This document shows, in pieces, positions 5,225 through 62,640 of a stretch of 64,000 bases of DNA. The notes below the pieces were generated by a model, which did no database searches, had not been told where the DNA came from, and saw only the letters and a program-made list of their open reading frames with translations. The first letter of the stretch is position 1, and each line of letters opens with the position of its first letter. The stretch comes from Bacillota bacterium (GTDB lineage: Bacteria; Bacillota; JAAYKD01), in NCBI GenBank assembly GCA_036744005.1, contig DAINOJ010000003.1:29403-93402 (forward strand), read 5' to 3'. The position numbers were made by a program, and so were the translations under genes.

Positions 5225-5242
5225 TACAGATGGTGATTTTAT

Positions 5243-5274
5243 AAAGTGCTCTCTCCAACCGGAGAGAGCACTTT
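5243..5274 (+). terminator. Stem-loop downstream of the MFS gene (14-bp perfect stem AAAGTGCTCTCTCC / GGAGAGAGCACTTT)
   Basis: Perfect inverted repeat with a 4-nt loop; the downstream T-tract is weak (ATTGCTT). Confidence 0.5.
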
Positions 5275-5389
5275 ATTGCTTAAAAAAAGAATCAACACGA
5301 AGTTTCTATTGCGCCAAGCATATGAATATGATACATTAACCGTATTATCGCAACAATATGTAGAATTTAAATCTTAAGGGGGGATTACA

Positions 5390-6955: not shown

Positions 6956-7029
6956 ATTCTATGTGGATTCTTCAAGGAGGTAACGCGTAAAACACCCGGT
7001 TCGGTTTATTTGTACATCTGGCAGAAGGA

Positions 7030-24500: not shown

Positions 24501-27500
24501 CTGTGTTATCGATCCCAACACTGCCCATGATTTCACTGCGTTCTCTGTGCAAAATCAGGTAGGCAACAGCGAAATCAACACAGCAGACCATACCATTGTC
24601 TTTCATATGCCCTATGGGACTGACGTAACCAATTTGCAACCCCAGTGGACGTTGTCGGCCAATGCTGCGGTGAGCCTAGGGGCTTCCATCCGGGACTATA
24701 GTCAACCTGTTACCATGACTACTCGCTCCGAAAGTGGGGCAGAGCAAGTGTGGCAAATCACATGTGTCGTAGATCCCAACCGAGCCAACGATATTACCCA
24801 GTTTGTGGTGGCGAACCAAGTAGGGAGTAGCCAAATCGATGCGGCGAATCACACGATTGTATTCCACATGCTCTACAACACCGACGTCTCGGTCTTAACG
24901 CCACAAGTATTGATATCGGAAAAAGCCACCCTTTCGCCGGTGTCTGGACTGGTTCGTGATTTTAGATTACCTCAAACCTATGAAGTGACCTCTCAGAGTT
25001 TAGAAGTTCAGAATTGGACCGTGACCTGCGTGGTGGACCCCAATCGTGAAAACAAGATAGTAAGTCTGACCGTGCCAGGGCAAATAGGGCAGACTACTTG
25101 GGACGAAAGCAAGCAAGCCTGGGTGTTCCATGTGCCCTACGGAACCAACATTCAACAACTTACACCGAGTTTGACTCTCTCGGAGGAAGCTTCCGTGAAT
25201 CCAGCCAGTGGTACGACCTTAGATTTCAGCCAAGAGCAAATCTACACCGTGATTGCTCAAGGAGGAGAAATTCAAACTTGGGCCGTCCAATGTATGGTCG
25301 AACCCAACCAAGCAAACGACATCCTCACTTTTGTTGTAGACCGTCAGGTGGGCGAGAGCCTCATCGATGCGGCTCTACATACGGTGACCTTCCATATGCC
25401 CTATGGCACCAACGTCAAGACCTTAAACCCGAGCTTTACACTATCGGAACGGGCCAGCAGTGATGTGGCATCGGGAGTCCCTCGAGATTTTACACTTCCG
25501 GTGACCTACGGTATTCTCTCCGATAGTCAAGACGTACAGCTTTGGACCGTGACCTGTGTGGTGAACCCCAACACGGAAAACCGAATTCTTGGTTTCTCTG
25601 TGCCAAGCCAATCGGGTAGTAGTGTGATCGATACCAATGCACATACCATTACCCTTGCAGTTCCCTATGGCACACCCACTGGTGCGGTCATACCCACCTT
25701 CACCATTTCAGCAAAATCAACGGTAGAACCGGGCATTGGCGCAAGCGTGAATCTCGGGCAGCCGGTTGTCTACACCGTGACCTCTCAAAGTGGAACAGCT
25801 CAAACCTGGACCGTGACATGCAATATTTTACCCAATACCCAAAAGAATATAGAGCATTTTACGGTTCCGGGCCAAATCGGGGATACGGTCATAGACCAGA
25901 TCAACCATACCGTGCGCTTTGAAATGCCGTTTGCGACTCCGGTTACGGCCTTGACTCCAACCCTTGTCCTCTCAGTCGAAGCCAGCGTTTCACCAATCTC
26001 AACAGCTCAAGTCGACTTTTCTCAGCCGCAAACCTTTACAGTGACTGCACAAGATGGCACCAGTCAGGCATATATTGTGACTTGTATCCGTCGCAATACG
26101 GCGAATGATATTGTGAGTTTCCGAGTCAATGGTCAATACGGAAGCACTCAAATCGATTCTGTGAATCACAGCGTCCTCTTCTACTTGTTCCCAGGCACGT
26201 CCGTGAGCGCTCTTGCACCTACCCTAGAATGTTCCACTGGTGCCACGGTTTCACCAGTCAGCGGTAGAGAGCAAAACTTCAGTTCCGCCGTGGTCTACAC
26301 CGTTACCGCTGAAAACGGAACCCCCCAACTTTGGACGGTGACTTATCGCATATACTATGAACCCGAAGAAGAGGTAGCTCCACCGGTTAAACCACCAACA
26401 CCCCCTCCGGAAGATCAACCCTTGAAACCCAAGGAGCTGGAAGAGAAAATCGAACCATTAAAGAAAACCTTTGTTCAGGTGGCAACCGATAGCGCTTCGG
26501 GAATCACTTCCAAAACTGCAACCCTTGCAGGCCGCATCGTTGCAGGTGGCGGGGACTTGACCGTGGGATTCCGCTACCGTCAAGCCGGTCAAAGCGATTG
26601 GATGTATACCGGAACCAGCAGTCAAACCATTGGCAATGGTGGAACGTTCTCCACAACCTTGACGGATCTCTTACCCGGAACCGAATATGAAGCAGAAGCC
26701 AGAGCAGCCAACAGCTTTGGTTTAGGGGAAGGCGGAGTCGTATCTTGGAAGACCACAGCGGCAACAGCACCGAAAGTGGCAACCTATGAAGCCGTTGGGT
26801 TGAGCTTAAATCAAGCTACCCTCACGGGTGCGGTACTGGATGATGGAGGATCTGTTCTCACCAATACCGGCTTCCAATGGGGCTTGAGTGAAGATTCTGC
26901 TTCCGAAGTGAGCACCGGCATCGGTAAACTACTACAAACCACCATTACGGACTTGAAACCGGGTCAGAAAATCAGCTATCGTGCATTTGCCGGCAATGCC
27001 GTTGCGACGACCTATGCTTCTTGGCAAACCTTTACAGTTCCTGGTTTGGTCGTCACCACCTTGAAGCCAACCGAAATCACTCGATCATCGGCAACTTTGC
27101 AAGGTCTCATCGTCGGCAGTAGCAAAATCATCGAAAGCGGTTTCAGTATTAGCCCGGGAGATGTCAATCTCCTCTTGGCAAACCCCAATGCGCAAGGTGA
27201 ATTCTCGGTCAACTTGCAGAACTTAAAACCCGATGCCAAGTACTATTACACGGCCTATGCCAAAACAGCCGTCGGAGAATTCCGTGGCGAAGTTCAAGAG
27301 TTGATACTCGTCAATGACTTCCCGGTGGTAGAAACGTTGGAAGCCACGGAGAAGGCAACCATTGTGGCCAACATCGGTGGCTATGTCATCAAGAACAGTG
27401 GCTATAAGATTACCGACAGTGGCTTTGTCTGGGGTATGGACCCCAATCCCGACCAAAAAATCTCGGTGTCTCCTGGTGAAGACCTACGAACCCTGCAATA

Positions 27501-30500
27501 TAAACTGGTGGGGTTAAAGGGGGGTACCACTTATTACTATCGAGCCTATGCTACGAACGAAAAGGGTACTGGATACGGTAAGACCATGCAGTTTATCACT
27601 GCAAAGGCCCTAAAACCGACAGTGGTGACGCAATCGGTGAGCTTTGACCCTGCCAGCTGGCAATGGGTTCTGGTGGGAAGTGTTGCCAACAACGGTGGCG
27701 TTCCTTTGGTGGAATATGGCTTCCGCATTAGCAGCGATGAAAGCCAATGGGCGAATTTGGTGGTTGGCTTCGACGTGCGTGGGAATTATATCTCGAGAGG
27801 GTTGCAGTTCATGGATGAACTAACACCCGGTACATACTACATGCGTGCGTATGCTTTGAACCCAGGTGGCATGGGAGAAGGGGAAATCCTCTCGTTTAAG
27901 GTGCCCACCAAACCGAGTATCACGGCTGCAGTGGATAGGGAAAGCATTGTATTGGATCATCTCACACTCGTCGGGACAATCACCGATACGGGCGGTTCAG
28001 AGATTTCTTGTGTGACCACTCAATTTAAGGTTCGCAAAGTGGGTGAAAGCGAATGGACTACACTGGGGACCACCCAAGGTGTGTTTGGAATAGGGGATTT
28101 CCGTTTTGATGCCAGCAGCTTGTCCCCCGGAGCGAAGTATGAGCTCATGGCCGAGGCTCGCAACCAAATTGGCTGGGGAAGCAGTGCGGTGGTTTCTTTC
28201 CAAATGAACTATGGCAAAACAGATCGAGATGCGGTAACGTATTTGAAAACACAAGGAAAGACGGCTACCGAGATTGCTACGCTTTTGAAGACCTATTATC
28301 AAGATAGCCCGGCCTCTGCCTTTGCTGCCTTGGTATTTGGAGAATTCAGCTTAAGTGACATCACAGCGGCGATGAAACAATCGACATATGCCACCAGCCA
28401 CCGTAATGTGGCAAACCTCATTCAACAAGCAGGTTACGATGCTAAGGCTCTGACGAAAGTGATGTTAGAGCATTATGACCGTGATGTACTAATGATGGCC
28501 AGCGGGAATCGAGAAGAAGGTGCCTTGCTGTTAGCCAAAGTCAGTGGGTATACTTCTGTTGATCTTGCCAAAGTATGTTTGGAGCTGTTCCAATACGATA
28601 CAGCAAGAACCGTATCCCGATTAAGTACTTATAATTTCTATGGGCAAGACGAAGCATATCGAGCGGCCCTAGAAGTGTATGGACTAGAGTCTATGATACA
28701 ATTTTTGCTTGCCCAAGCGAATAGCTCCTTGCAACGTAGTGGTCAAGGGCGTATGCTTACAATTTTGACGGAAACAACCGCTTTTTTGCGTAACGTTGCG
28801 AAGTTGAGTTCAGAAGAAACGGCAAGTGTGTTAACGCGTTTTCATGCTGGCTTAAGTGCCAAAGAGCTAGCCAATGCGTTCTATTATGCCAAAGAAACCG
28901 TTTTCGAAACGGGCAAGGCCATTGCTTACTTGTTTGGGAGCAATCTTTCTGATATCGCCAGAGCACTAGAAGATACGCCCTTGAAAGAAGAGCGCATCAA
29001 CGACTACCTGATTTTAGACCTCGGAGCATCGGCTTTGGATATGGTGCCCATTGTGGTCGATATCTATAACCACTGGATGGACCCCAAAGAAGGGTGTGCC
29101 ATTATTTTCAAAACCTACTTCAAGTTAGATGCGATTGGTGCGGCGAAAGTTTTATATGCCGCCGGATGGACGGAGAATGTCGTCGATTATCCCGGTTATG
29201 GATTAGGTAATCTCATTTGGACCATGAAGTTACACTATGGCTACACCAGTGATGCGCAGTTGATTGAAGTATTTAAAGCGCTGGGGTTGTCCCCTCTGGA
29301 AGTAGCCAAACGGTTGGTGAACAATTCCGGCTGGCGGTGGTTACCATCATACCGGTTGGGTGGATACACAGCGACCGATGCCGCGGTCTGGCTCAAAGCA
29401 GATTGGGTGAAATACGGTCGTAGAACGCAAATCAGTCAGACCATTAAGATGTGCTATGAGGCCGGTTATGAGGTATCGGACATTGCATCGGCTTTGATTT
29501 TCCACTATGACCTCGAAATTGCTGAGGCCATGGCATTCTTTGTCGACAACATCAATCTGAGCTCGACAGCCATTAACGAAGCATTAACCAAGGCTTATGG
29601 CAAAGATCCTTTACAAAGCGCAGTAGAAAAAATGAAAGGGCAACCGCTGGAGAAGATTCTTTCGACTCTAAAGAGTACGTATGAAGTGAAAGATCCGGTT
29701 GAGGTGACAAATTTACTAATCAAAGCGGGGTATTCGCAGGAAGCCATTTTCGAAAAGATGATTTGGACCTATTTTGAATCGTTTAATCGGCGAGAGCATC
29801 TTGAGGCATTTACGGCATATCTGCAACAAATAGACTCTGGATTGAATCGAAAAGACGCCATGAATGCATTTCTGCGTCGAAATCAACTTGCGGAAGGCCC
29901 AGAACACGCTGCCGGTTTCCTCAGGCATTCTGCACAGTATTCTATGAGTGAAATCGCGGAAATCTTCCAAAACGAGTACCAAATAACCATTGCAGAGGCG
30001 TTGACCGTCTTCTTTAGCACCTTTGGAGCAGGCAAAGAAGTAGAGTATTACCCGGTTGTCGTCAAGGCCTACGATATGGACGTTAGCAGTTACATCAGAT
30101 ATCAACACAAACGGGGCATTGACGCAACCGAGAGTACCAAAGAACTCATCGACAACTTCAAACTGACCAATCAGATTGAAATCGCAGAAGTCCTCTACAA
30201 AAGTGATTACAATAAAGAAGCCATTGTCCAGAGTTTCCTGCAAGTATACTTCTCCGGTTTTCTAAGTCCGGAAGTAATAACGCTCATGAATGAGTTGGAT
30301 GAGAAGGTATTTAAGCAAGGATTGAGCGTACAAATCGAAACACTGACACAAAAAGGTACGTTGCAACCCGTAACAAAGGTGATTACAACCTTGTACGCCG
30401 CGGGGATTTCGCTAACAGAGATCATCCGAACTCTGAAAGATTTATATGCACTTTCTCAGAAAGAAGCTCATGACAGTACCATGGCGGTGTCTCTGTTCTC

Positions 30501-32190
30501 CTACGAAGAGGTGTCACAGGCAGTTCAGCTGGTTTATGGCGGTGATTTTGTGGTCGCGATGATACGCTTGTGGCGAACGAAAAAGTGGGGAAATGCGGAG
30601 TATTGCTTTAGAGAATTGGAACGGTCTTCAGGGATCAACGATCGGGTAGCCATCTTCCGTTACTTACGCATTGCGGGTTTCAGCGAGGAAGAAGCAGCAG
30701 TCGGTTTATACTGGGTGGCGCGAGATGACATGCTCGTGACGTTGAAAGAGGCATACAACCTGCAAAGCGCACTCGAACTCGCCCAAAAGTTGAAACAAGT
30801 CACCGGAGATTTAACGAGTCGATTCTATAGTACGACCTTTGCGAATTACTTAGTATCATTGTTCCCGCAGACTACCAATTACGAAATCGTAAAAGCCTTC
30901 TTAGCGATTGGTCTGCAGATACCACAAACAGGCACCGATTCCATAGCCGGATGGCTGCGCTCGCATGCGAACGTGGGTAAACGCGATAACAGGTTGGCTG
31001 CTTACTTGGGAACGAATAACAATGGATTGAACTTGGAAGTGCATACAGCGATTGAGATTTTAGAAAAAATGGGCTACAATATTCAAGATGCCGTGTATTG
31101 GGCTCTGCAATCAGGATACCAGTGGAAAGATTTTTTGCAGCATATGGTATATCGTTTTGCTCCAGCGAGTTTCCCGACATCTTATTATGATAACAATTCG
31201 TCCTCCAAGTTTGTTGTCATGTATCTAAAGGATTATTATTCTGCACTCGATATTGCAGCAGGCTTACTGGGCTATCATAAGTCCGCAGGAAGGGTACTTG
31301 CGGATCTCATCAGTGGTGGATTTTCCGTGGAAGAAGCGACCTACGCTACATTATGGCAAGGAGGAGGAGCCGCAGTCGATATTGTGGTCAGTTTGGTGGA
31401 TGATAGCATTGGACGAGCCAATACGGCAAGAGATCAATCGTTACGACTGAACGCCGTGCAAGCTACCGAGATAGCGTTCTACAACAGTTTAGCGGTTGCG
31501 TATGATCGTAAAGTAAAAGGACTTCCTTATGAGGACCCCATTACCTTGGAGGATTTAGCGGCAAGTTTGGTCAAGTATGGTCCCAGTGCACAAAGTGGGT
31601 GGAGCAGCCAATATTTCAGCCACTGGGAAGTGCTGACTGCCATGCAAAATATTACCCGAATTTACTTAGAACTCGCCAAGGTGGACATGCCCTACACGGA
31701 AATTGCCCTAGCCACGTTGCGCTTGGCAGGACTCTCGGTTTCGGATGCAGCCGAGATGATGGCAGCACATAAAGTGGGCTTGAGTACCGGTGATGTGATT
31801 ATGAGTGTGCTGGGGTTAGGAAACGAGTGGTTCGATGCCGTCAAAATTCTTGCCGGAAGCGGCTATAGCTTTAGTGACTCAATGTCCGCTGTTTACAATA
31901 ACAGAACCTATCACATGGTGATCGGTATTAGTGTACTCAGTAGCTTGGTCACAACCGCGGTATCGAAACTTAGCAGTATCGCTTCACTGGGAACCTACAT
32001 TAATTATGTCAAACAAACCGCTGTTTTAGGATTTATGATTGGTCAGAATGCTAGTTATACGGATATGTTGCTGCATTTACCCAATTTCTATTTGGGATTC
32101 TTCGGAAAATTGGCCTATGCCGGGGGTAGAGTAGGTTATACTTATATCCCGAAAGATTACCGTGTTGAAACGTATGTGCCTATTCCATAA
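18517..32190 (+). CDS. Giant secreted/surface repeat protein (4557 aa): signal peptide, Ig-like beta-sandwich repeats, InlB B-repeat (Flg_new-type) arrays, Fn3-like repeats, Pro-rich linker, ~1200-aa alpha-helical repeat array, hydrophobic C-terminal tail
   Basis: RBS GAGGAGG 7 nt before ATG. N-terminal hydrophobic signal-like segment. Repeat classes read directly from the translation; no LPXTG, SLH or choline-binding motifs seen. Confidence 0.85.
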   Translation: MFRLGTNQRFIRVIHWLLIFSMIVPQISVVAVVQAQENEQTPRQESVFLSEISSDPVFLRDVPAGSTVQFASYDWLVLDPANGMLIKQSPYGTPVPYDSSTPGGNVYFQPSNASNIGFLLNTTFLSSLSALDQSRIRNVNWEIGPQGHEWEHIVGAKVGLLNTMQVQTEPVASQLQPFLADSWLLTWHAVEYDTYAWASGLSGNYYIGSDLLPTVETDYSVGHNVHPVMYLSPNTPTLSGAVIPPQNEILSFSVPNQRGESVFDYDTSTLTFTVTDLVDLTSIAPQITVSPGATSQVVNGVATDLSIPTTCTVTSSDGFTKNWVLVAQVLSTKTDITEFSVDEMQLVGEDNYATINRSLHTVHFLVPADTDVTQLTPSIYAMMDANIVPETKTTQDFTSPVAYTVTAEAGNSQNWLVTCVRVGDTVPYTVEHYHQDLVGLNYSLNHTQTLSGTLGSTVTASTQSSSGFVENITQANRITSGVTQLDGSLTLRLYYDRTLHRVTYEEDGGSSVADLASLRYGSTLTTPQTPVRTGYQFLGWFTDVDRTQAASFPMILTADTTFYAKWQSTLGEPGDITGFTVRNQKGNSSITRYDGYGSIDLVMPAGSDVQFLSPVITTAAGTTISPASGEIRDFRGSDQYGVEYTASYGEDSTLAWYVRMTLEEEPKEIRTFHVPGQLGDSIINPTDHTVYFVMPFGSDVTTLRPSITVPNWDTVFTGYWWGVQNYYSPTAYDAEDFSYPVEFHVVGSDSIEQSWTATCRVQAETAGYISSFTVPSQVGNSFIDMVNHKVVFHMPYGTDATHLEPTIVVPAGSTLQPLADSVRDYSGLVYFQVTAPGGSPQLWTVQCIVDQNTEKSIAGVTLEKSKGVVIDSALHTVTIKMPAETDVTSLAPQFQLPAGAEIYPSSGIAKDFTSPRQYLVYAQDGSKQLWTVTVLLLGNVTVEHYQMMPSGDWYGVERVNYYYDQQPSSTFTAEAATFVGFVENTTHSSRVPAGTVQAGKTLTLKLYYDRLPYTVQFVENGGSEIADLTHVLYGTWPTRPTPPVKTGYRLENWYTDPEWTNAYQFNVDLTQDLVLYAKWEVTPPVLSPAGGKYAPGITVTADIDCYYTLDGSDPRTSSGVFLAAGASIAIDQTTLVKSCSKLAGEYSPVEETTYEIVTTKYLVSFESNHGSAVEAQEIAYGHRATLPQTPTQYGYTFVHWCSDIHLSEPYDFSTAVYEDITLYAKWTFATLTITFDTQSGSTIEPVSAWFGTYLTEPTPPSKAGYTFKEWNPAFPSTMPGEDITLTAIWTANQYTLHFNSDGGSTVADQLQTYLQPISAPVAPTKTGYTFAGWSPAIPNVMPMSDLTVTAQWTVNQYTITFDSDGGTAVLPITQDYGSTLISPENPTKTGYEFGGWTPFLPATMPAENLTLTAYWGANFYTVTLDTNGGNLIDPIRREVNTVLTAPANPVRAGYIFTSWQPSFPSTMPANNMTITAQWQANSITLSFDSAGGSEVASIVQLCDTTWTPPANPSRAGYTFVAWNPLLPSKIPTSNQTHTAMWSINSYTISFTTAGGSDVASMTEAYNTPLTQPTNPTRTGYTFSGWNPTFPTKMPAENRTLVAQWTPNLYTVTFDSKGGSAVTPVTQEYLKAITLPSNPSKAGHTFTGWYTDAEATLLYDFNTLITGNRTLYAGWQIQSYLVRFEDWDGELLKEETIIYNTASNPPVSPDRMPTAQYFFEFTGWGGDTSKITSATTFTAVYESILRQYTVYYLDTTGTEISTQTVAYDNWAAEPQQPYREGLTFMGWYQDSALINAVTFPVLIQGDMSFYASFKRPGNEILSFEVAGQVGSTSIDSYFNIVSLVVPWHTDRTQLVTTITVSPGALVSPASGVATDLSNGKNFTVTAEDGSQKQWLVMVGEAESPNEIETFKVTGQNGDSIIDPVARTVVFHMPFGSNVTALRPEVTLTYGAYCNIGWFPDMDYGGRNPVDFTYQVKYTVITDQKGSYSYWQEWLVSCVIDPNTAHDFTAFSVQNQVGNSEINTADHTIVFHMPYGTDVTNLQPQWTLSANAAVSLGASIRDYSQPVTMTTRSESGAEQVWQITCVVDPNRANDITQFVVANQVGSSQIDAANHTIVFHMLYNTDVSVLTPQVLISEKATLSPVSGLVRDFRLPQTYEVTSQSLEVQNWTVTCVVDPNRENKIVSLTVPGQIGQTTWDESKQAWVFHVPYGTNIQQLTPSLTLSEEASVNPASGTTLDFSQEQIYTVIAQGGEIQTWAVQCMVEPNQANDILTFVVDRQVGESLIDAALHTVTFHMPYGTNVKTLNPSFTLSERASSDVASGVPRDFTLPVTYGILSDSQDVQLWTVTCVVNPNTENRILGFSVPSQSGSSVIDTNAHTITLAVPYGTPTGAVIPTFTISAKSTVEPGIGASVNLGQPVVYTVTSQSGTAQTWTVTCNILPNTQKNIEHFTVPGQIGDTVIDQINHTVRFEMPFATPVTALTPTLVLSVEASVSPISTAQVDFSQPQTFTVTAQDGTSQAYIVTCIRRNTANDIVSFRVNGQYGSTQIDSVNHSVLFYLFPGTSVSALAPTLECSTGATVSPVSGREQNFSSAVVYTVTAENGTPQLWTVTYRIYYEPEEEVAPPVKPPTPPPEDQPLKPKELEEKIEPLKKTFVQVATDSASGITSKTATLAGRIVAGGGDLTVGFRYRQAGQSDWMYTGTSSQTIGNGGTFSTTLTDLLPGTEYEAEARAANSFGLGEGGVVSWKTTAATAPKVATYEAVGLSLNQATLTGAVLDDGGSVLTNTGFQWGLSEDSASEVSTGIGKLLQTTITDLKPGQKISYRAFAGNAVATTYASWQTFTVPGLVVTTLKPTEITRSSATLQGLIVGSSKIIESGFSISPGDVNLLLANPNAQGEFSVNLQNLKPDAKYYYTAYAKTAVGEFRGEVQELILVNDFPVVETLEATEKATIVANIGGYVIKNSGYKITDSGFVWGMDPNPDQKISVSPGEDLRTLQYKLVGLKGGTTYYYRAYATNEKGTGYGKTMQFITAKALKPTVVTQSVSFDPASWQWVLVGSVANNGGVPLVEYGFRISSDESQWANLVVGFDVRGNYISRGLQFMDELTPGTYYMRAYALNPGGMGEGEILSFKVPTKPSITAAVDRESIVLDHLTLVGTITDTGGSEISCVTTQFKVRKVGESEWTTLGTTQGVFGIGDFRFDASSLSPGAKYELMAEARNQIGWGSSAVVSFQMNYGKTDRDAVTYLKTQGKTATEIATLLKTYYQDSPASAFAALVFGEFSLSDITAAMKQSTYATSHRNVANLIQQAGYDAKALTKVMLEHYDRDVLMMASGNREEGALLLAKVSGYTSVDLAKVCLELFQYDTARTVSRLSTYNFYGQDEAYRAALEVYGLESMIQFLLAQANSSLQRSGQGRMLTILTETTAFLRNVAKLSSEETASVLTRFHAGLSAKELANAFYYAKETVFETGKAIAYLFGSNLSDIARALEDTPLKEERINDYLILDLGASALDMVPIVVDIYNHWMDPKEGCAIIFKTYFKLDAIGAAKVLYAAGWTENVVDYPGYGLGNLIWTMKLHYGYTSDAQLIEVFKALGLSPLEVAKRLVNNSGWRWLPSYRLGGYTATDAAVWLKADWVKYGRRTQISQTIKMCYEAGYEVSDIASALIFHYDLEIAEAMAFFVDNINLSSTAINEALTKAYGKDPLQSAVEKMKGQPLEKILSTLKSTYEVKDPVEVTNLLIKAGYSQEAIFEKMIWTYFESFNRREHLEAFTAYLQQIDSGLNRKDAMNAFLRRNQLAEGPEHAAGFLRHSAQYSMSEIAEIFQNEYQITIAEALTVFFSTFGAGKEVEYYPVVVKAYDMDVSSYIRYQHKRGIDATESTKELIDNFKLTNQIEIAEVLYKSDYNKEAIVQSFLQVYFSGFLSPEVITLMNELDEKVFKQGLSVQIETLTQKGTLQPVTKVITTLYAAGISLTEIIRTLKDLYALSQKEAHDSTMAVSLFSYEEVSQAVQLVYGGDFVVAMIRLWRTKKWGNAEYCFRELERSSGINDRVAIFRYLRIAGFSEEEAAVGLYWVARDDMLVTLKEAYNLQSALELAQKLKQVTGDLTSRFYSTTFANYLVSLFPQTTNYEIVKAFLAIGLQIPQTGTDSIAGWLRSHANVGKRDNRLAAYLGTNNNGLNLEVHTAIEILEKMGYNIQDAVYWALQSGYQWKDFLQHMVYRFAPASFPTSYYDNNSSSKFVVMYLKDYYSALDIAAGLLGYHKSAGRVLADLISGGFSVEEATYATLWQGGGAAVDIVVSLVDDSIGRANTARDQSLRLNAVQATEIAFYNSLAVAYDRKVKGLPYEDPITLEDLAASLVKYGPSAQSGWSSQYFSHWEVLTAMQNITRIYLELAKVDMPYTEIALATLRLAGLSVSDAAEMMAAHKVGLSTGDVIMSVLGLGNEWFDAVKILAGSGYSFSDSMSAVYNNRTYHMVIGISVLSSLVTTAVSKLSSIASLGTYINYVKQTAVLGFMIGQNASYTDMLLHLPNFYLGFFGKLAYAGGRVGYTYIPKDYRVETYVPIP
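21550..23960 (+). repeat. Array of ~11 InlB B-repeat / Flg_new-type ~70-aa repeats within the giant gene
   Basis: Units such as YTVTFDSKGGSAVTPVTQEYLKAITLPSNPSKAGHTFTGWYTD...LYAGW recur with diverged sequence. A further isolated copy lies at ~20000-20220. Confidence 0.7.
23960..26340 (+). repeat. Array of ~13 Ig-like ~87-aa repeats within the giant gene
   Basis: Consensus F.VP.Q.G.S.ID...HT..FHMPYGTDVT.L.P...LS..A.VSP.SG...DF..P..YTVT...G..Q.W.VTC.VDPN. Earlier copies lie at ~19240-19790 and ~20230-21320. Confidence 0.7.
26470..28210 (+). repeat. ~7 Fn3-like ~85-aa repeats within the giant gene
   Basis: Units with TATL.G.I...GG......GF.Y........W......................L.PGT.Y...A.A.N..G.G.G, following the linker EPEEEVAPPVKPPTPPPEDQPLKPKE. 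Confidence 0.6.
28215..31900 (+). repeat. ~19 diverged copies of an unassigned alpha-helical repeat (core L..AGYS.eeIa..L...Y) within the giant gene
   Basis: Recurring units such as LIQQAGYDAKALTKVMLEHYD, MCYEAGYEVSDIASALIFHYD, LLIKAGYSQEAIFEKMIWTYF, LRIAGFSEEEAAVGLYWVARDD and ILEKMGYNIQDAVYWALQSGY, spaced ~60-70 aa apart. Confidence 0.6.
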
Positions 32191-42214: not shown

Positions 42215-43000
42215 TTGGATTTACGAAAAACCTTTAGCGAAGATGTGGTACTTTATGAAAAATATCGACCAAGGTATTGTCCGGCGTTGTTTCAAAGCAT
42301 TGTATCACGGGCAAACCTGAACCGAGAATCTCTGGCTTTGGAAATTGGGTGTGGGACAGGTCAAGCGACGAAGCCATTTCTCGAGACCGGTAGTCGGGTG
42401 GTTGCCATTGAGTTGGGTCAAGAGATGGCCGATTTTGTGCGCGAAAAGTATACGGGATACCCGAATTTTGAAGTGGTATGTGGGGAATTTGAGCAGTATA
42501 CAGGACCGGAGACGGCATTTGACCTTATTTACTCAGCGACGGCCTTTCACTGGATACCCGAGGAGATTGGGTATCCCAAAGTATTCAATTTGTTAAAGCC
42601 GGGAGGTTTGGTGGCATTGTTCTGGAACCGCCCACAACCCGATCTGGCGAATTTGGCTTTGCATGAGCAGATTCAAGCAGTATATACCGAGTATACGGAA
42701 CGGGGAATATTTAAGAAATCGGGAACGCCCATGACAGGGCAGACAGAGCGCAGAGATGGAATCCTACGTGCTCTGCAGCATGCAGGATTTGTGGATGTGC
42801 AGGTGCAAGACTTCTTGGCTTATCGTGCGTTTTCGGCGGAGGAGTATGTGAAGCTACTCGATACGTATTCCGATCATCGCAGTTTGCCGGCAGACGTAAA
42901 AACCGAGTTTTATAAGAAAGTGAAAGACGCGATTCTCAGGCACGGAGACACGATCCGGTTGGAGGATCATATGGATTTATATATGGCAAAGAAACCCTAA
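42215..43000 (+). CDS. Class I SAM-dependent methyltransferase
   Basis: Motif I LEIGCGTGQAT and motif-post-I VVAIE. TTG start after AGGGGGGAG. Confidence 0.75.
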   Translation: MDLRKTFSEDVVLYEKYRPRYCPALFQSIVSRANLNRESLALEIGCGTGQATKPFLETGSRVVAIELGQEMADFVREKYTGYPNFEVVCGEFEQYTGPETAFDLIYSATAFHWIPEEIGYPKVFNLLKPGGLVALFWNRPQPDLANLALHEQIQAVYTEYTERGIFKKSGTPMTGQTERRDGILRALQHAGFVDVQVQDFLAYRAFSAEEYVKLLDTYSDHRSLPADVKTEFYKKVKDAILRHGDTIRLEDHMDLYMAKKP

Positions 43001-45645: not shown

Positions 45646-46281
45646 TTATACAAGATGGTTACGAAGTGCGAAAAGCGCGATTTGGGTACGATCTTGTAAG
45701 CCGGTGGAGGCAAGGATGGCTGAGATGCGGTTACGAATCGTTCCTTCAGAATAATTCAAATGCTCGGCGATCAGGCGATTGGCATAACCAATGCCAATGC
45801 AACGAATGATTTCCAAATCGATTTCGTCAAATTCTAAGTTCAAGTCTGTTGGCATATAGGGTGGAGATGTCACAGCTTGCTCGAGGGTATGCAGTATCGA
45901 AGGATGCATACAAACCAATCCGGCCATGCAACTCTCGATAGCCAAAATAAGAGCAGCCGGTGTCATATCTTTTAACAAATAACCATCGGCATGCAAAGCA
46001 ACCGCTTCCTGGATTTTTTCGTAATCGCCAAATGTGGTTAGCATCACCACTTTCATTTCGGGGAAGGTGGCTTTTAGCTTCTTCAGGGCAAGCAAACCAC
46101 TGCTACCGGGCATTTGAATATCGAGCAAGCAAAGATCGGGAAGATGCTTCGAAGCGAGTCGAACGGCTTCTTCACCATTGCAGGCTCGGGCGATGACCCT
46201 AAAATCAGAGCGACTTCCCAGCAACGTGGCCAACAAATCTAAGAACAGACTCTGATCATCGGCTATTAGAATATGCGTCAT
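45646..46281 (-). CDS. NarL/FixJ (LuxR-type HTH) response regulator
   Basis: Receiver motifs ILIADDQ, LLDIQMPG, and a C-terminal LuxR HTH (IIRCIGIGYANRLIAEHLNYSEGTIRNRISAI). RBS GGAGGG. Confidence 0.85.
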   Translation of the reverse strand: MTHILIADDQSLFLDLLATLLGSRSDFRVIARACNGEEAVRLASKHLPDLCLLDIQMPGSSGLLALKKLKATFPEMKVVMLTTFGDYEKIQEAVALHADGYLLKDMTPAALILAIESCMAGLVCMHPSILHTLEQAVTSPPYMPTDLNLEFDEIDLEIIRCIGIGYANRLIAEHLNYSEGTIRNRISAILASTGLQDRTQIALFALRNHLV

Positions 46282-47110
46282 GACTCATCCCTCCGTGTAC
46301 TAGACGACGAATTTGCTGCAACAATTCACGCAAGCCATGGGCAAGGGTCTGCAGAGTTTCATTTTGACCATCGTTGGCTTGGTTCAACATGTCGGTATCA
46401 CTGAGTAAAAGCAACTCGTCTAGTTTTTTTTGTATTTCCATTTGCAATTGCTCCGCCAATAGTCTTTGTTGTTCCGCCAATAACAAGGCTTCATCTGCTC
46501 GAATTGCCTCTTGCAATTGTTGTTGAATGGCTTGCAACTCTGTCGACTTAAGAGTCCACTCCTGAAACAAAGCTTTCTCGTGGCTGATGTCCTGCAAGAC
46601 GATGAGACACCCTAACGGAATCCCCTTTTGCTGCAATGGCAATTCGCGCAGGATAAAGGTCTGCTCCCCCACTAGCCACTCTTTCTCTGATTTTCGAAGA
46701 GGTAGCACTGCCTGCTCCCATTCCAAAGGCATATTTGAATACACCACTATCCCCGAAGCATTCAACATAAGCAAGGGATCTAGTAACAATGGGGAAACAT
46801 CAGTGACCTTCAACCGAGACGACTTTCCTTTACTTGTTTGCCTCCACTGCCATAACCACCCCAGAATCGCACCCCACCAAATCACGGTTACAGAAACAGA
46901 TAGATACTTCGCAGTAGTGGTCGTCGGTGCAATCACGAGCAAAAACTGCCCCCCGGATGCAAAACAAGCTAACAGCCAAGGCCATACTGCCACAGACCTG
47001 TGCAGGGAAAGATCAAACTGCAGCATGCCGAACCTAAGAAATGTAAGCGCTGCAGTTAACCAAAATAGTAATTGCGGTAGAAACCAAGGACTCATTAGGG
47101 TGTATCGCAT
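46256..47110 (-). CDS. Membrane protein with PAS-like region and a degenerate, histidine-less DHp (HisKA_3-like) segment; no ATPase domain (pseudo-kinase-like)
   Basis: N-terminal TM helices, then EQQRLLAEQLQMEIQKKL...LAHGLRELLQQIRRLVHGG, which aligns by eye to the HisKA_3 pattern with LHD replaced by LQM. Overlaps both the upstream kinase and downstream regulator genes. RBS GGAGGG. Confidence 0.6.
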   Translation of the reverse strand: MRYTLMSPWFLPQLLFWLTAALTFLRFGMLQFDLSLHRSVAVWPWLLACFASGGQFLLVIAPTTTTAKYLSVSVTVIWWGAILGWLWQWRQTSKGKSSRLKVTDVSPLLLDPLLMLNASGIVVYSNMPLEWEQAVLPLRKSEKEWLVGEQTFILRELPLQQKGIPLGCLIVLQDISHEKALFQEWTLKSTELQAIQQQLQEAIRADEALLLAEQQRLLAEQLQMEIQKKLDELLLLSDTDMLNQANDGQNETLQTLAHGLRELLQQIRRLVHGGMSHDAYSNSR

Positions 47111-48729
47111 GATTCAACCCTCCGTTTTAGTAAGGTGTCTATTCGGAACCCTTCCCCTGGGCCATAGGTGAACTTCACCGTTCCGCCCAAAGCAGATACA
47201 CGCTCTTCCATTCCTAGCAATCCGTGACCTTTTTGCAGGTTTTCACAACCCTGACCGTTATCCAAGATGATGAGTTGCACCTGACGAGGTAAATAACGTA
47301 GAACCACATCCATCCTTGTTGCCTTGCTATGCTTAATAGCGTTTGTCAACGCCTCTTGTAACAACCTGTATAAAAGACGGGTTTCCTCTGATCTCAACTC
47401 ATAGGGGTCGCCCTGAACCAACAAGTCTACAGCAATGCCACTGTGAGCGGCTCCGTTTCGAATACTATGTAACGCCATTTGTAAGCTAGTTTGATCCTGT
47501 TTGTTTTCTATCTGCAAGGAAGATTGCCAGTCTGTTCTGCCTTGGATTAAAAGCTCTTTCACTTTGCTTAGCGCTTCCGAAAAGGTCGTGTCTTGTAGCA
47601 AGGCCACCTCTGCTGTCGATAAAGCTAAAACGACCGTATGACCTAAAACGTCGTGCAACTCCTGTAAAACCTTTTGTCGAGCTTTCCACGCAATCCATTC
47701 CTGCCTACGCTGAAGCATTCGCTGCCACCCGGCATTCGCCTCTTGTAAAAGTCGGTTCTGCTCTTCCAGCAGTTGCCTCATCCTCCGAATCGTAGTCACC
47801 GGACGCAAGCGCCACAAGGCACCTGCGGGCACGGTGCTTTTTTCTACCTCGAACCAATCGGATCCCACTTGCACAGTGCTACCCGGGATCCACTCGATGA
47901 ATGGGAGACCTAAAAACACCTCCCTTGCTCGTTCATTGCGGTGTAACACCGTTCCTTGTTCATCGCAAACAAAGCAGGCATCACCGTGTCGCTCAAACAA
48001 TTGTTCTTGTGCCAAGGGAAGCACATCGAGGAAACGGGTTCGCAGGGCAGCCATGGCAAATAAAAGCAAACTGGCATTGGTCGCGATGGGAGTGTAATCA
48101 AAACGAGGGGTATGGTGCAATAGCATTTTGAACCAGCCAAACACATAAAAGAGATTGACAACGAGCGGCAAGAGGATCGCTCCGGTAAATAAGATGGCTT
48201 GTGTCCTTCTATGTTGAAACAAACTGCTATAATCACGGCTCAGCCAGTAGAAGGCAACAGCTAAATAAGCATAGGTAACACTCATGACACCATAGAACAG
48301 AGGTCCGAAATCATCGGCATATAGGGTGAATCGACTATAGAACATAAAGTGCCAAGGGTTACTCCACACGAGCAAAAAACTGATCATTCCGGGCAAAAGC
48401 AGCCAGAAGATTCTCCTGCGCGACGGTAAGCGATGAAACCGATAGACCATGGCAAACAACAATACCAAAGGACCTAAGAAAGAAGAAGCAAAATACTGAA
48501 GTACCACAAAAAACCACCGTAGATCCAAGGTAGAAGCAACGGTCTTGCCGATTTTAGCCAACATCCATAAAGCCAAAGAACCTTGAGCCAACAAATAACA
48601 AGACAACAATGCACCCTTTTTCGCTTTGTGAGAAATAAACCAATTGAAACCAAAGGAAACCAACAATGAGAACAAGTGCCAGGCTTCAATGATAAAAACC
48701 TCGTCTGCTAATTTGGCGGATACTTGCAT
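47095..48729 (-). CDS. Sensor histidine kinase, NarL-partner type (polytopic N-terminal domain, PAS-like, HisKA_3, HATPase_c)
   Basis: About 6-7 N-terminal TM helices, H-box LQELHDVLGHTVV, N-box LLQEALTNAIKHS, G-boxes ILDNGQG and GHGLLGMEERV. Confidence 0.85.
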   Translation of the reverse strand: MQVSAKLADEVFIIEAWHLFSLLVSFGFNWFISHKAKKGALLSCYLLAQGSLALWMLAKIGKTVASTLDLRWFFVVLQYFASSFLGPLVLLFAMVYRFHRLPSRRRIFWLLLPGMISFLLVWSNPWHFMFYSRFTLYADDFGPLFYGVMSVTYAYLAVAFYWLSRDYSSLFQHRRTQAILFTGAILLPLVVNLFYVFGWFKMLLHHTPRFDYTPIATNASLLLFAMAALRTRFLDVLPLAQEQLFERHGDACFVCDEQGTVLHRNERAREVFLGLPFIEWIPGSTVQVGSDWFEVEKSTVPAGALWRLRPVTTIRRMRQLLEEQNRLLQEANAGWQRMLQRRQEWIAWKARQKVLQELHDVLGHTVVLALSTAEVALLQDTTFSEALSKVKELLIQGRTDWQSSLQIENKQDQTSLQMALHSIRNGAAHSGIAVDLLVQGDPYELRSEETRLLYRLLQEALTNAIKHSKATRMDVVLRYLPRQVQLIILDNGQGCENLQKGHGLLGMEERVSALGGTVKFTYGPGEGFRIDTLLKRRVESCDTP

Positions 48730-56726: not shown

Positions 56727-56853
56727 TGAATGACTAGTAAGGGAACGAGGGATTTCATTTCGAATGAGGGGTTCAATTTTGTAAAATAAAAGGATAATGT
56801 CGACATAAAACGAAATAATTGGTATTCAACAAATTTTGTGCGGAGGTGACAAT

Positions 56854-58710
56854 ATGCCCCCTACCGATGAGATGCTGAACAGAAACCCATTGTTGTTGAA
56901 ACCCAATGAGCGTTTTCCGACCTATCAGTTCTATGCCACCATGACCGGGAAAGCGTCTCCCGAGCAAACGTTGCTTACGGCTATATTAACCACATTTTCC
57001 TGGTTGCGAGAACGCTTTCGCGAGTTAGAGGTTCCGGCGGATTTGCAGCTGCCATCTGCGAGCGAAGTTGCCACTGTAGGCCTAGAGTGCTTACGCTCGT
57101 TCCGCATTGCCGTGGGTTACACGGTAGAGGTGGTCTGGATTGCCGAAAAAGGGGTATGGGCCATGCAACTTAGCGAGCCCGACTTGGGTGATGGTCATCA
57201 AGCCGGTCGCACTCCGGTCGCCGGACGGATTTTTGAAACCAACATTGCTTTTCGTCTGACACACGATAAAGTGGAAATGGGGTTTCGCACCCTCGTTTCT
57301 CAGCCATTGGGCACCATGGAGCCTTGCGAAGTGTATCGCCCGGCGGTAATAAAGGATTTGGTGCGCAACTCTGGTCTGAAGTTCTTTGGCGAGTGGCCCA
57401 TTGTGGAGTCGTGCTGGAGCGTTTCCAAAGGAGAGGTCCATAAGCTGATGCTGTGGCTCAAAAACAAGAAACGCACCCTGCCGGCGGTCGTGACACGTAT
57501 GACTACCCCAGGTGTGACGACGATGAGCCGTGAAACAGTGTTGAAGATCGCTCAGTTGCTTGAAGTGATCGCGATACAAAGACCTGGCAGTCCACACATA
57601 AACCTTCCTTTCGTTGACCCAAATTCGGCAGCAAAATCAGCATCTACCCACCCGTTTTGTGGTCTACTAGATGATGTTCCCCGATTGCGCATGGGGTATG
57701 CCCAGTTTTTTCTGTTTGCCGAGGATTCTGCCTATGAAGCGGCTCGCAAGCTTGGCTTGGAACTGGCAGAGAACGAGATTCGAGTCTATCCAGTTTGTAA
57801 ACCAGATGGTTTAGTGCCTGCGCATTCGTTTCATATCACGAGCAAGAACCAGAAGCAGGTCAAAGAAGAGTTGCTGAAGGAGCTACAGGATGCACCGAAG
57901 AACCATCCGAATGAGTTTGGTGACGTGGTTTTCTTAGCGGAGGCGAAGATTTTAGAGCAGAGTCGCTTCATGGATTTGGCCAAGTCGAAGGAAGAACTAC
58001 AGCTGCGATGGATGGAAAAGTGGGATGCGCGGGAGAACGGCATTGAAAACGAACGGGCCAGTTGGCGTCGCCAGCTGGTGGAATGGAAAGAGGACTTGGC
58101 ACGAGTAGAAGAGGAGCTGGCAGAAGCGCGTGCCGATGCCAAACGCTGGGAAAAAGAATACCTTGAGCTCGAGCGTGCGAGTAAATGGCGAAACGAGGAG
58201 GACCAAGGACTCATCGATTGGCTGAAAGCGCAACGGAATTGGCCAAATGAGGTGGAAGAAGTGGCGGCCTGGGTAGAACGAACCCAAGCAGGGAAGCTGA
58301 TTCTACACCAAAAAGCATTGAGCGTACTGAAGAGTGTAGAGCTTCCGGATATCGATGTTTTTGCGCTATGTTCAGCACTGGAGTTTTTAGCGAATGAACA
58401 ACGCGATTGGTTGTTAAAGAAGATAGACGATGTGCAACTTCGTTTGCGATGCACCCGAAAATATGGTCGGCCTTTTGAAGTGTCTACCTCATCGGAAACA
58501 ACCTTGAAGAAATATTGGGATGAGTACAAAATCAAATACGGCAAATCAGAAAAAGGGAAATCGCATGAGCAAGCACTGACCTATCACTTAAAGGTAGGTA
58601 CTAACTCGGAAAAAATGATTCGTATTTACTATTTATGGGATGCTGAGAAAAAAATCATTGTGGTGGGGTCGTTGCCCAAGCATTTGCCAACAGTGTCGGA
58701 TCCACATTAA
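56854..58710 (+). CDS. Hypothetical 618-aa protein: unassigned N-terminal domain, central coiled coil, C-terminal segment resembling the RelE/ParE toxin-fold motif
   Basis: RBS GGAGGTG before ATG. Coiled-coil stretch ...WRRQLVEWKEDLARVEEELAEARADAKRWEKEYLELERA. C-terminus YHLKVGTNSEKMIRIYYLWDAEKKIIVVGSLPKH resembles the RelE core YKIKLRSSGYRLVYQVIDEKVVVFVISVGKRE. Confidence 0.55.
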   Translation: MPPTDEMLNRNPLLLKPNERFPTYQFYATMTGKASPEQTLLTAILTTFSWLRERFRELEVPADLQLPSASEVATVGLECLRSFRIAVGYTVEVVWIAEKGVWAMQLSEPDLGDGHQAGRTPVAGRIFETNIAFRLTHDKVEMGFRTLVSQPLGTMEPCEVYRPAVIKDLVRNSGLKFFGEWPIVESCWSVSKGEVHKLMLWLKNKKRTLPAVVTRMTTPGVTTMSRETVLKIAQLLEVIAIQRPGSPHINLPFVDPNSAAKSASTHPFCGLLDDVPRLRMGYAQFFLFAEDSAYEAARKLGLELAENEIRVYPVCKPDGLVPAHSFHITSKNQKQVKEELLKELQDAPKNHPNEFGDVVFLAEAKILEQSRFMDLAKSKEELQLRWMEKWDARENGIENERASWRRQLVEWKEDLARVEEELAEARADAKRWEKEYLELERASKWRNEEDQGLIDWLKAQRNWPNEVEEVAAWVERTQAGKLILHQKALSVLKSVELPDIDVFALCSALEFLANEQRDWLLKKIDDVQLRLRCTRKYGRPFEVSTSSETTLKKYWDEYKIKYGKSEKGKSHEQALTYHLKVGTNSEKMIRIYYLWDAEKKIIVVGSLPKHLPTVSDPH

Positions 58711-59895: not shown

Positions 59896-59946
59896 TGCGG
59901 TATGTAACTAAAATTGAAACATTTACATGGATTGGGGGAGAATGCT

Positions 59947-62640
59947 GTGCAGAGCGAGGAATACTTGGAGAAAAAAATACGTGAAAACCCAGATTTTCAC
60001 AGTAGTTTGGTGCAAAGCTTTTTTCAGAATGCTCTCATCGGACAAGCGTTTACTTTGCCCTCAGGCGAAATCATCCCCAATCGAGCCATGTGTACTATGT
60101 TCGGCTACTCTGCCGAAGAACTCAGCACTATGACCTGGAATGACCTTACCTACCCCGAGGACAGACTAGCTTCACAGCAAATTATACAAGACATCGTGGA
60201 CGGAAAAGCCACAGAAGGACGCTTGATCAAACGCTACTTGCGCAAGAATCAAACCTACTTTTGGGCCGAAGCCTTTACATCTCAATTCAAAAACCCGGAT
60301 ACGGCTGTCATCCATAATCTGACCACCTTCCTCGACATTACTCGCCAAGTGGAGCATGAGCAAGAGGCCGAGCAAGTGAAGCAAACCTTTGAAACGTTCA
60401 TCGATGCCAGCGACGACAAAATCTTCCTTAAGGACGAGCATTTTCGTTACATCATTGTCAATGAAACGGCAGCAAGAAATCGAGGATTCAGCAAAGAAGA
60501 ATTTATCTTAAAGCAAGCCCAAGATTTTATGAGCAGCGAAGAAGCTCGTTCTCGCCAGTTATCGGATATGGAAGTGGTACAACAACATAAAGTAGTCATC
60601 AACGAGGAAAAAATCGGTGAGCGTGTCATGGAAAACCGCAAATTCCCAGTCGCCTTGGGCAATGGCAAAATCGGTGTGGGTGGTTTCGTTCGCGACGTTA
60701 CCGAAGCGGTACACCAACGTGAGTTTCTGAAAAAGATGGCTGAAAGCAACCGCATTGTCACAGAATGCATGACTCGTGAGTTCCAATCGGTGCAGGAACA
60801 AGTGGATTTTGCTTTATCGGAAGCCCTTACCCTCACCGAGAGCGACTGCGGTTGCATTATGGTATACAACGAACCACAAGCCGAGTTGGAGCTCTTTGCA
60901 CATTATCATAAGGACAAAAGTTTTCGAATGAGTGAAGGGAACGGGCAAAAAATGCCTTTAGCAGAAGCGGGCTTTTGGGGCGAAGCGGTTCACCAACGTA
61001 AAGTCTTGGTCTTTGATCCGTCTCAACCGGTCCGGTTGCCCGCCAACAACCCCTGTGCGCACATGAACATCCAAAACATTATGACACTGCCCATGTTCGA
61101 CCATGAGAAAATCGTGGCGCTGGTCGGTTTTGCCAATAAACCGGATGGCTACTCCGAACGCGACATTGCGGCGATTACTTCTCTGATGAACGGCGTCTGG
61201 ATGGCGGTCAACAAGCGCTTACAAGAACGTCGCACAGCTAGGTTATTGGCACGCTTGGAAGCCATGTTCAACAACCACGAAGCGGTCATGTTTTTGCTGG
61301 AAGCCGAAACCGGTAAAGTACTCGATGTCAACCCGGCTTGCCTGGCCTTCTACGGATATACTCGAGAAGAAATGATGCAAAAACATATGTACGAGATCAA
61401 TGCCATGGGCAAAGAGAACTCTGAGCAAATGCGCAACGAAGTCATCCAAAACAACAGTGCGCGATTTACAACGCAACATAAACTAAAAAACGGTGAAATT
61501 CGCACCGTCGACTTATACTGCTGTTCCATTCCCTACGGTGGCAAAACCCAACACTTTTCCATCCTCTTCGATATTAGTGAGCAGGTGAAAGCCACCAAGC
61601 AGATTGAATATTTGGCTTATCACGATCATCTCACCGGAGTATACAACCGCCGCTTCTTTGATGAAACCTTCCAACTCATGGCCGATGGAGGGATGCAATA
61701 TCCTATTGGCGTGATTATGGGTGACATTAACGGGTTGAAGTTGTTTAATGATACCTTTGGTCACCTCAACGGAGACACCGCCATACAACTTTTGGTGCGC
61801 CATATGCAGGATTTACTTCAACCGAATCAATTACTCGCCAGAATTGGTGGTGATGAGTTCGCCATTATCGTACCCAAGACCAATGAGAACGAGTTGAAAC
61901 AGCTGATTAAAACACTCGAGGTGGTCTATCGTCCGGAAACACCACAACACGATATGAGTTATTTAAGTATCTCTTTTGGCTTTAGTATACAGCGACATCG
62001 TAGAGACAATTTGGATTGGTTGCTCAAAGAAGCCGAAGCGTTTATGTATAATCGCAAATACTACAGCAATCGCAGCTTCCGCAGCAGTGCCATTCACGCC
62101 ATTATGGAAACCCTCTTTGCCAAATCGGAACGTGAGAAATTGCATTCGGAACGCGTCAGTCAGTTGAGTGAGAAGATTGCCAAGCAAATGAAACTTCATC
62201 AGGACACTGTAAACAAAATTCGCGTGGCGGGAATGCTGCATGACATTGGCAAAATCGGCATTGATGAAAGCATTTTGAACAAGCCGGCAAAACTGGATGC
62301 CAACGAATGGGAACTGATGAAACTACACAGCGCCAAAGGAGCAAAAATTCTTGGTAACACCGTTGAGTTCCACCAAATTGCCGAATGGGTATTACAGCAC
62401 CACGAAAGAATCGATGGCAAGGGCTACCCAAACCAAGTCAAAGGTAATGAGATTCCCTTGGCGGCACGCATCATCTCGGTAGCCGATGCCTACGATGCCA
62501 TGACCAACGAACGACCCTACCAAAAGGCCATGAGCCCCGAAGAAGCCCGCAAAGTACTTCTGACGGGAGCCGGAACCCAATGGGACAGTAAGGTCGTAGA
62601 TATCTTGCTGGAACAGGTTGTTCATGAGCTCAAGCGATAA
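59947..62640 (+). CDS. Multidomain c-di-GMP signalling protein: PAS, PAS, GAF, PAS, GGDEF (IGGDEF), HD-GYP
   Basis: GTG start 6 nt after GGGGGAG. GGDEF motifs HLTGVYNRRFF, GDINGLKLFNDTFGH, RIGGDEF. HD-GYP motifs GMLHDIGKIGI and HHERIDGKGYP. Confidence 0.8.
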   Translation: MQSEEYLEKKIRENPDFHSSLVQSFFQNALIGQAFTLPSGEIIPNRAMCTMFGYSAEELSTMTWNDLTYPEDRLASQQIIQDIVDGKATEGRLIKRYLRKNQTYFWAEAFTSQFKNPDTAVIHNLTTFLDITRQVEHEQEAEQVKQTFETFIDASDDKIFLKDEHFRYIIVNETAARNRGFSKEEFILKQAQDFMSSEEARSRQLSDMEVVQQHKVVINEEKIGERVMENRKFPVALGNGKIGVGGFVRDVTEAVHQREFLKKMAESNRIVTECMTREFQSVQEQVDFALSEALTLTESDCGCIMVYNEPQAELELFAHYHKDKSFRMSEGNGQKMPLAEAGFWGEAVHQRKVLVFDPSQPVRLPANNPCAHMNIQNIMTLPMFDHEKIVALVGFANKPDGYSERDIAAITSLMNGVWMAVNKRLQERRTARLLARLEAMFNNHEAVMFLLEAETGKVLDVNPACLAFYGYTREEMMQKHMYEINAMGKENSEQMRNEVIQNNSARFTTQHKLKNGEIRTVDLYCCSIPYGGKTQHFSILFDISEQVKATKQIEYLAYHDHLTGVYNRRFFDETFQLMADGGMQYPIGVIMGDINGLKLFNDTFGHLNGDTAIQLLVRHMQDLLQPNQLLARIGGDEFAIIVPKTNENELKQLIKTLEVVYRPETPQHDMSYLSISFGFSIQRHRRDNLDWLLKEAEAFMYNRKYYSNRSFRSSAIHAIMETLFAKSEREKLHSERVSQLSEKIAKQMKLHQDTVNKIRVAGMLHDIGKIGIDESILNKPAKLDANEWELMKLHSAKGAKILGNTVEFHQIAEWVLQHHERIDGKGYPNQVKGNEIPLAARIISVADAYDAMTNERPYQKAMSPEEARKVLLTGAGTQWDSKVVDILLEQVVHELKR

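Follow-up and report, generated by a model that had tools for sequence, protein, structure and literature searches.

A HEC-07-like gene as a candidate single-polypeptide anti-phage defence system in a Bacillota genome

A 64,000-nucleotide stretch of contig DAINOJ010000003.1 (Bacillota bacterium, GenBank assembly GCA_036744005.1; the whole stretch is called the window below) carries on its forward strand a gene for a 618-residue protein that is probably a divergent member of the HEC-07 family of anti-phage proteins (Table 1). The open reading frame (ORF) exists as the first-pass annotation of this DNA had described it, with an ATG at 56854 and a stop codon ending at 58710 in the ORF list, and the C-terminal string quoted there, YHLKVGTNSEKMIRIYYLWDAEKKIIVVGSLPKH, occupies residues 577-610. 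An in-frame TTG at 56836 would give an alternative product of 624 residues; the ATG is favoured because GGAGG lies 7 nt 5' of it. A profile built from 17 homologues matched 2207 representatives of 50 %-identity clusters at E<=1e-3; at E<=1e-30 the number is 362. The forward-strand ORF is a real, conserved gene because more than 100 of the representatives among the matches listed are full-length homologues (600-660 residues). An identical protein is encoded on 8 contigs of metagenomic or assembly origin, and its 90 %-identity cluster includes one truncated member of 210 residues labelled bioreactor metagenome; a tblastn search of plasmid and phage collections gave no match. Two antisense ORFs on the minus strand, 57091..57597 (168 residues) and 57831..58544 (237 residues, Ser-rich), were rejected as genes, and we interpret both as low-complexity shadows of the conserved forward-strand gene, notably of its charged-helix region. 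One family representative (P0031) is 780 residues long, and its best profile match (positions 196-616) begins at residue 348, which points to an N-terminal extension or a duplication (two matched stretches).

Table 1. Coordinates of the HEC-07-like gene, its parts and selected neighbours in the window.
Feature	Position	Strand	Remarks
HEC-07-like gene	56854..58710	+	618 residues plus stop codon; ORF list, PADLOC, hhalign, homologues
Shine-Dalgarno sequence GGAGG	56842..56846	+	7 nt upstream of the ATG; read from the sequence
N-terminal alpha/beta domain, putative sensor	56896..57369	+	residues ~15-172; secondary structure of the model, conservation
Thioredoxin-like domain without CxxC motif	57379..57891	+	residues ~176-346
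Low-confidence, disordered insert in the thioredoxin-like domain	57508-57654	+	residues 219-267; model
Long charged helix / coiled-coil linker	57988..58233	+	residues 379-460; single helix in the model
C-terminal RelE/ParE-fold RNase module (putative activity)	58234..58707	+	residues 461-618
H578-L-K580, putative active-site strand	58585..58593	+	equivalent to HEC-07 H509-L-K511
R590-I-Y592, putative active-site strand	58621..58629	+	equivalent to HEC-07 R523-L-Y525
H610	58681..58683	+	equivalent to HEC-07 H543; invariant (89/89)
Secreted protein, 2536 residues	49116..56726	+	127 bp upstream of the HEC-07-like gene, co-oriented
Seven-transmembrane (7TM) histidine kinase with LuxR-type response regulator	45646..48729	-	
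PAS-GAF-PAS-GGDEF-HD-GYP signalling protein	59914..62640	+	908 residues

The protein is built of four parts. The ~500 residues ahead of the RelE-like core had been read as lacking any recognisable domain apart from a strongly charged coiled coil; the coiled coil stands, as one helix in which 49 % of the residues are K, R, D or E, but the remainder contains two folded domains, one of them clearly thioredoxin-like. The N-terminal domain gives only weak START/TBP-like matches when the full-length model is compared with the PDB by Foldseek. Across 89 family sequences, W50 and E108 of this domain are invariant, and Q25, W102, D110, G124, R125, T129 and R162 are near-invariant. The C-terminal module, modelled separately at high confidence, has the RelE/ParE alpha/beta fold, and consists of a RelE core with an additional N-terminal helix and a helical insert (residues 461-480 and 526-555). 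The full-length model gave no RelE match against the PDB, so that the separate model of the module was needed. The interpretation of the C-terminus as RelE/ParE-like is supported by this fold; the core had been confined to the last ~40 residues, whereas the conserved module extends over ~158.

Four residues are fully invariant in the 89 family members, W50 and E108 in the N-terminal domain and H578 and H610 in the module. K or R occupies position 580 in 80/89, and R590 and Y592 are each kept in 88/89. The residues conserved in at least 90 % of the sequences further include P210, F360, P464, W473, L512, Y558, G582, F593, D596, G605, P608 and L611, besides the near-invariant residues of the N-terminal domain listed above. 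In 30 sequences of the HEC-07 clade, the aligned H509, L510, K511, R523, Y525, G538, P541, H543 and L544 are invariant. RNase-type RelE relatives such as YafQ, YoeB and HP0892 rely on a set of His, Lys/Arg, Arg, Tyr and His residues placed on the sheet and in the C-terminal segment. Mapped onto them, H578, K580, R590, Y592 and H610 are the putative catalytic residues; we infer this assignment by comparison, because no sequence profile joins the C-terminus to the curated RelE/ParE families. Scans of the full protein and of the C-terminus against Pfam, NCBIfam and PHROGs returned only noise, and Pfam gave no RelE, ParE, YafQ, YoeB or HigB match on 45 diverse C-termini of the family. Neither sequence nor profile searches of the PDB brought up a toxin: full-length queries returned coiled-coil noise, and the C-terminal profile matched only insignificant non-toxin entries (E >= 0.5). 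Alignment of the C-terminal family with single E. coli YafQ and RelE sequences by hhalign was not significant, and a word-indexed homologue search with the C-terminal alignment recovered gene fragments only. The residue-by-residue match to E. coli RelE proposed in the first-pass annotation finds no confirmation at the sequence level: at E 0.15, hhalign sets the RelE motif YKIKLR on YKIKYG (residues 558-563) rather than on HLKVG.

The kinship with HEC-07 is where profile searches gave a clear answer. While the Pfam, NCBIfam and PDB profiles contain no RelE/ParE match to the C-terminus, the PADLOC model PDLC04161 (HEC-07) matches residues 367-613 at E 7.2e-28, on profile positions 319-550 of 553. 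Three further PADLOC HEC-07 models match the window protein at E 8e-21 to 1e-11, and the HEC-07 models match 9/10 diverse family members. In this PADLOC match and by hhalign, the charged helix aligns with the corresponding helical segment of HEC-07. A family-to-family comparison by hhalign, with the 89 window-family sequences on one side and the 30 HEC-07-clade sequences on the other, gives a probability of 99.9 % and E 2.1e-33 over 489 collinear columns (32-608 versus 41-555); the HEC-07-clade alignment includes the tested protein itself (P0173, WP_033943166.1), which was recovered with its proteobacterial family. The N-terminal domain alone aligns with the single tested HEC-07 sequence at a probability of 82 % and E 1e-5 (16-225 versus 16-195). 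BLASTP against WP_033943166.1 aligns residues 556-611 with 493-544 at 40 % identity (E 2e-9) and sets LPKH610L on LPSH543L, a pairing of LPKHL with LPSHL that hhalign also makes.

HEC-07, "Hma-embedded candidate" 07, is a single-gene system described in a preprint (Payne et al., bioRxiv 10.1101/2024.01.29.577857), whose authors tested WP_033943166.1 of Pseudomonas aeruginosa NCTC13717. In that study, 7/9 candidates lowered phage plaquing in E. coli, HEC-07 included, the exceptions being HEC-01 and HEC-09 (10.1101/2024.01.29.577857). The authors described an AdoMetDC-like domain at the N-terminus, then a thioredoxin-like domain lacking CxxC and finally a RelE-family domain, likened the C-terminus to HP0892, a RelE-family toxin of Helicobacter pylori, and flagged the conserved H543 as a catalytic residue of the RelE family (10.1101/2024.01.29.577857). 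The window protein is homologous to this phage-protective protein along its length. From these sequence comparisons, the conserved residues, the lack of an antitoxin or constant partner gene and the defence genes beside relatives (described below), we consider it probable, at roughly 0.7, that the window gene is a divergent HEC-07-family member encoding a stand-alone, single-polypeptide anti-phage defence protein. The earlier suggestion of a possible "defence or effector function" is supported.

The giant secreted protein that had been noted next to the gene is present. Its N-terminus resembles a signal peptide, one IPT/TIG domain and a weak match to a BamB/PQQ-like propeller were recognised in it, and most of its length lacks a Pfam domain. 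Downstream, a convergent AraC-type regulator precedes the PAS-GAF-PAS-GGDEF-HD-GYP protein, and the neighbourhood is regulatory rather than defensive because signalling genes flank it on both sides (Table 1). No small ORF fits in the 127-bp upstream or the 83-bp downstream gap, in agreement with the earlier remark that no antitoxin-like ORF adjoins the gene, and no Rfam family matched anywhere in the window. A PADLOC 'mad2' match at 42215..43000 on the plus strand (E 2e-20) was rejected: the product is a 261-residue S-adenosylmethionine-dependent methyltransferase whose generic domain (Pfam Methyltransf_25/11) appears to account for the match, and the scan of neighbouring genes showed no further mads components. 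Farther upstream, 18517..32190 on the plus strand encodes a giant protein of surface type (4557 residues) that contains 9 units of the Listeria-Bacteroides repeat Flg_new as well as DUF5018 and FN3 domains.

Relatives found with the 17-sequence alignment provided 27 genomic loci with 129 neighbouring ORFs, in which housekeeping and defence genes are mixed. Across these loci there is no conserved neighbour, no antitoxin-like partner and no recurring small ORF. Defence genes near individual relatives include a Druantia DruE (L007, E 6e-166), a type IV methyl-directed restriction enzyme (L013, E 3e-234), a Cas9 gene immediately downstream (L018, E 2e-148) and a type III restriction enzyme (L025, E 1e-275), and the aggregated neighbour scans placed CARF/Csx1, WYL and DUF1848 proteins near others. 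Housekeeping genes, among them those for PGK, TIM and HAD hydrolases, lie beside many relatives. At L007, in a Christensenellales metagenome-assembled genome, a 1036-residue protein without a PADLOC match (4037..7144, plus strand) lies between the HEC-07-like gene and the DruE-like helicase; it could be an uncharacterised Druantia-type component. At least one distant relative (P0011, positions 1..1650 of L003/L022) stands directly downstream of a large surface protein with Flg_new and SLH, as the window gene stands downstream of its giant neighbour, and this likeness is possibly a coincidence.

Several observations weigh against a defence function exerted through mRNA cleavage. The window contains no defence-system neighbours and the neighbouring genes have no genuine PADLOC matches. 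The PADLOC hidden Markov models (HMMs) span only the C-terminal ~40 % (~250 residues) of the protein, and the N-terminal half is tied to HEC-07 solely through profile-profile methods. The tested protein comes from Pseudomonas and is only ~18 % identical at the profile level, and the C-terminus is joined to no curated RelE/ParE family by any sequence profile. ParE-type members of the RelE/ParE fold poison gyrase instead of cutting RNA. It is conceivable, if very improbable, that the RelE-like domain of the window protein is catalytically inactive or ParE-like, so that it binds a protein or the ribosome or poisons gyrase, and that the protein acts otherwise than by mRNA cleavage. For HEC-07 itself, the preprint text available mentions neither an active-site mutant nor a biochemical assay, so that even in the reference protein RNase activity, dependence on the ribosome, autoinhibition and the trigger are putative.

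Two broader roles also have to be considered. The protein might serve in stress or growth control, as a toxin fused into a toxin-antitoxin-like single chain that regulates translation when its thioredoxin-like and N-terminal domains register a metabolic or redox cue, and have no specific anti-phage role. A locus without defence neighbours, set amid a two-component system, an AraC regulator and a PAS-GGDEF-HD-GYP protein, would suit such a regulator, as would the frequent housekeeping neighbours of its relatives and the conserved charged pocket of the N-terminal domain (E108, D110, R125, T129), which could bind a small molecule. However, the full-length homology is to a protein that confers phage resistance, the thioredoxin-like domain lacks CxxC and is not redox-active, Cas9, restriction enzymes, DruE or CARF proteins border the gene in several relatives, and the patchy distribution in strongly diverged clades across phyla is typical of defence genes; we regard this role as unlikely. 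The position of the gene behind a co-oriented 2536-residue secreted protein, together with the similar position of P0011, raises the question of a secreted or contact-dependent polymorphic toxin, or of an effector that works with the giant neighbour, with the RelE module as the toxic tip delivered to competitors, and BECR/RelE-type RNase domains are indeed frequent as toxin tips (PMC12065111). Yet the N-terminus is hydrophilic and has no signal-peptide-like sequence, Pfam and NCBIfam detect no known domain in the protein, trafficking domains included, and the next gene downstream is the convergent AraC-type regulator instead of an immunity gene. The gene also has its own Shine-Dalgarno sequence, its architecture is conserved over the full length, with homology to a defence protein that acts inside the cell, and the neighbours of the 27 relatives are heterogeneous, with no recurring giant-protein partner. 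Such a role is therefore very improbable.

For the HEC-07-like defence protein, a mechanism can be proposed from its parts. Free RelE, YafQ and YoeB toxins cleave mRNA in the ribosomal A site. In the uninfected cell, the N-terminal domains and the helix would hold the RelE module inactive, as a covalent stand-in for the missing antitoxin; such an RNase would have to be restrained inside the same polypeptide because there is no antitoxin. Release would follow once the N-terminal half senses a phage-derived cue; the module would then cut mRNA in the ribosomal A site, probably via H578, K580, R590, Y592 and H610, so that translation would halt and the infection abort (abortive-infection-type defence). 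On this model, whose logic can be likened to that of the CARF-RelE protein Cami1 and the NsnC effectors, the protein would likely act as an autoinhibited, ribosome-dependent mRNase released on phage sensing. A more specific version, which we offer tentatively and at less than even odds, is that the N-terminal domain and the dead thioredoxin-like domain form a new covalently tethered antitoxin that doubles as the sensor: the pocket W50/E108/D110/R125/T129 would bind a phage protein or a small molecule, the charged helix of 82 residues would relay the signal and unmask a ribosome-dependent RelE RNase, and the triggers of the Firmicute/Bacteroidota clade would differ from those of the Pseudomonas prototype. 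If true, this would amount to a single-chain toxin-antitoxin immune sensor.

HEC-07 has so far been presented only in a preprint, as a phenotype and predicted domains. The numbers of representatives retrieved here (2207 and 362 at the two thresholds) indicate that the family is much larger and older than the PADLOC models capture, and the same four-part architecture reaches Clostridia, Tissierellia, Bacteroidia and Sumerlaeota. Comparison of the two clades narrows the conserved residues of the N-terminal domain to W50, E108, D110, R125 and T129 and those of the RelE module to H578, K/R580, R590, Y592, D596 and H610. This short list provides mutagenesis targets for how a RelE toxin stays safe without an antitoxin. 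For annotation, such "hypothetical proteins" can be named HEC-07-like defence genes, which the current HMMs reach in their C-terminal 40 % only.

Compared with known systems, the window protein differs from the type II RelE/ParE toxins (YafQ, YoeB, RelE, HigB and HP0892-type) in that it is not a stand-alone protein of ~90 residues; the module is fused to ~460 residues, contains extra helices, matches no Pfam family and has no antitoxin gene. A classical toxin-antitoxin toxin is ruled out by the missing antitoxin gene and Pfam match. Cami1 (PDB 8phb) is a CARF-RelE protein, a ribosome-dependent RNase ancillary to type III CRISPR, whose CARF domain senses cyclic oligoadenylate. In contrast, the window protein has no CARF domain, and no CRISPR system adjoins its gene in the window. 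The NsnC effectors of Menshen end in RNase domains of the BECR/RelE type (Li et al., NAR 2025, PMC12065111). The PADLOC models for NsnC match the C-terminal module of ~150 residues, with E 2.4e-5 in the window protein and values as low as 3.4e-10 in a relative (P0143), but this match is limited to the effector region and leaves the N-terminal part of the window protein uncovered. The middle domain of the window protein is thioredoxin-like, not PIN-like, whereas NsnC is marked by an N-terminal inPIN domain, and neither NsnA (ParB-DUF262) nor NsnB (ABC ATPase) was found among the neighbouring genes scanned. The shared match suggests, at the level of sequence, that one RNase module is common to different defence systems, HEC-07-like and NsnC.

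The closest counterpart is HEC-07 itself; the kind of system is already known, and the family is mechanistically uncharacterised. The window gene lies outside any Hma system and without defence neighbours, whereas HEC-07 was found embedded in Hma, and the two clades are taxonomically distinct, the HEC-07 clade being proteobacterial and the window clade comprising members of the four lineages named above. The window protein is ~70 residues longer, with the ~50-residue low-confidence insert in its thioredoxin-like domain, and the pocket of its N-terminal domain recurs in modified form in the proteobacterial HEC-07 as W48, D93, R102 and T106-E107. Both are single genes for proteins of ~550-620 residues whose four parts are collinear: the alpha/beta domain comes first, the thioredoxin-like domain lacking CxxC second, a helical linker third and the RelE-fold module last. 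Both also share the motif HLK...R(I/L)YF...D...VVG(S/W)LPxHL, including the histidine equivalent to H543.
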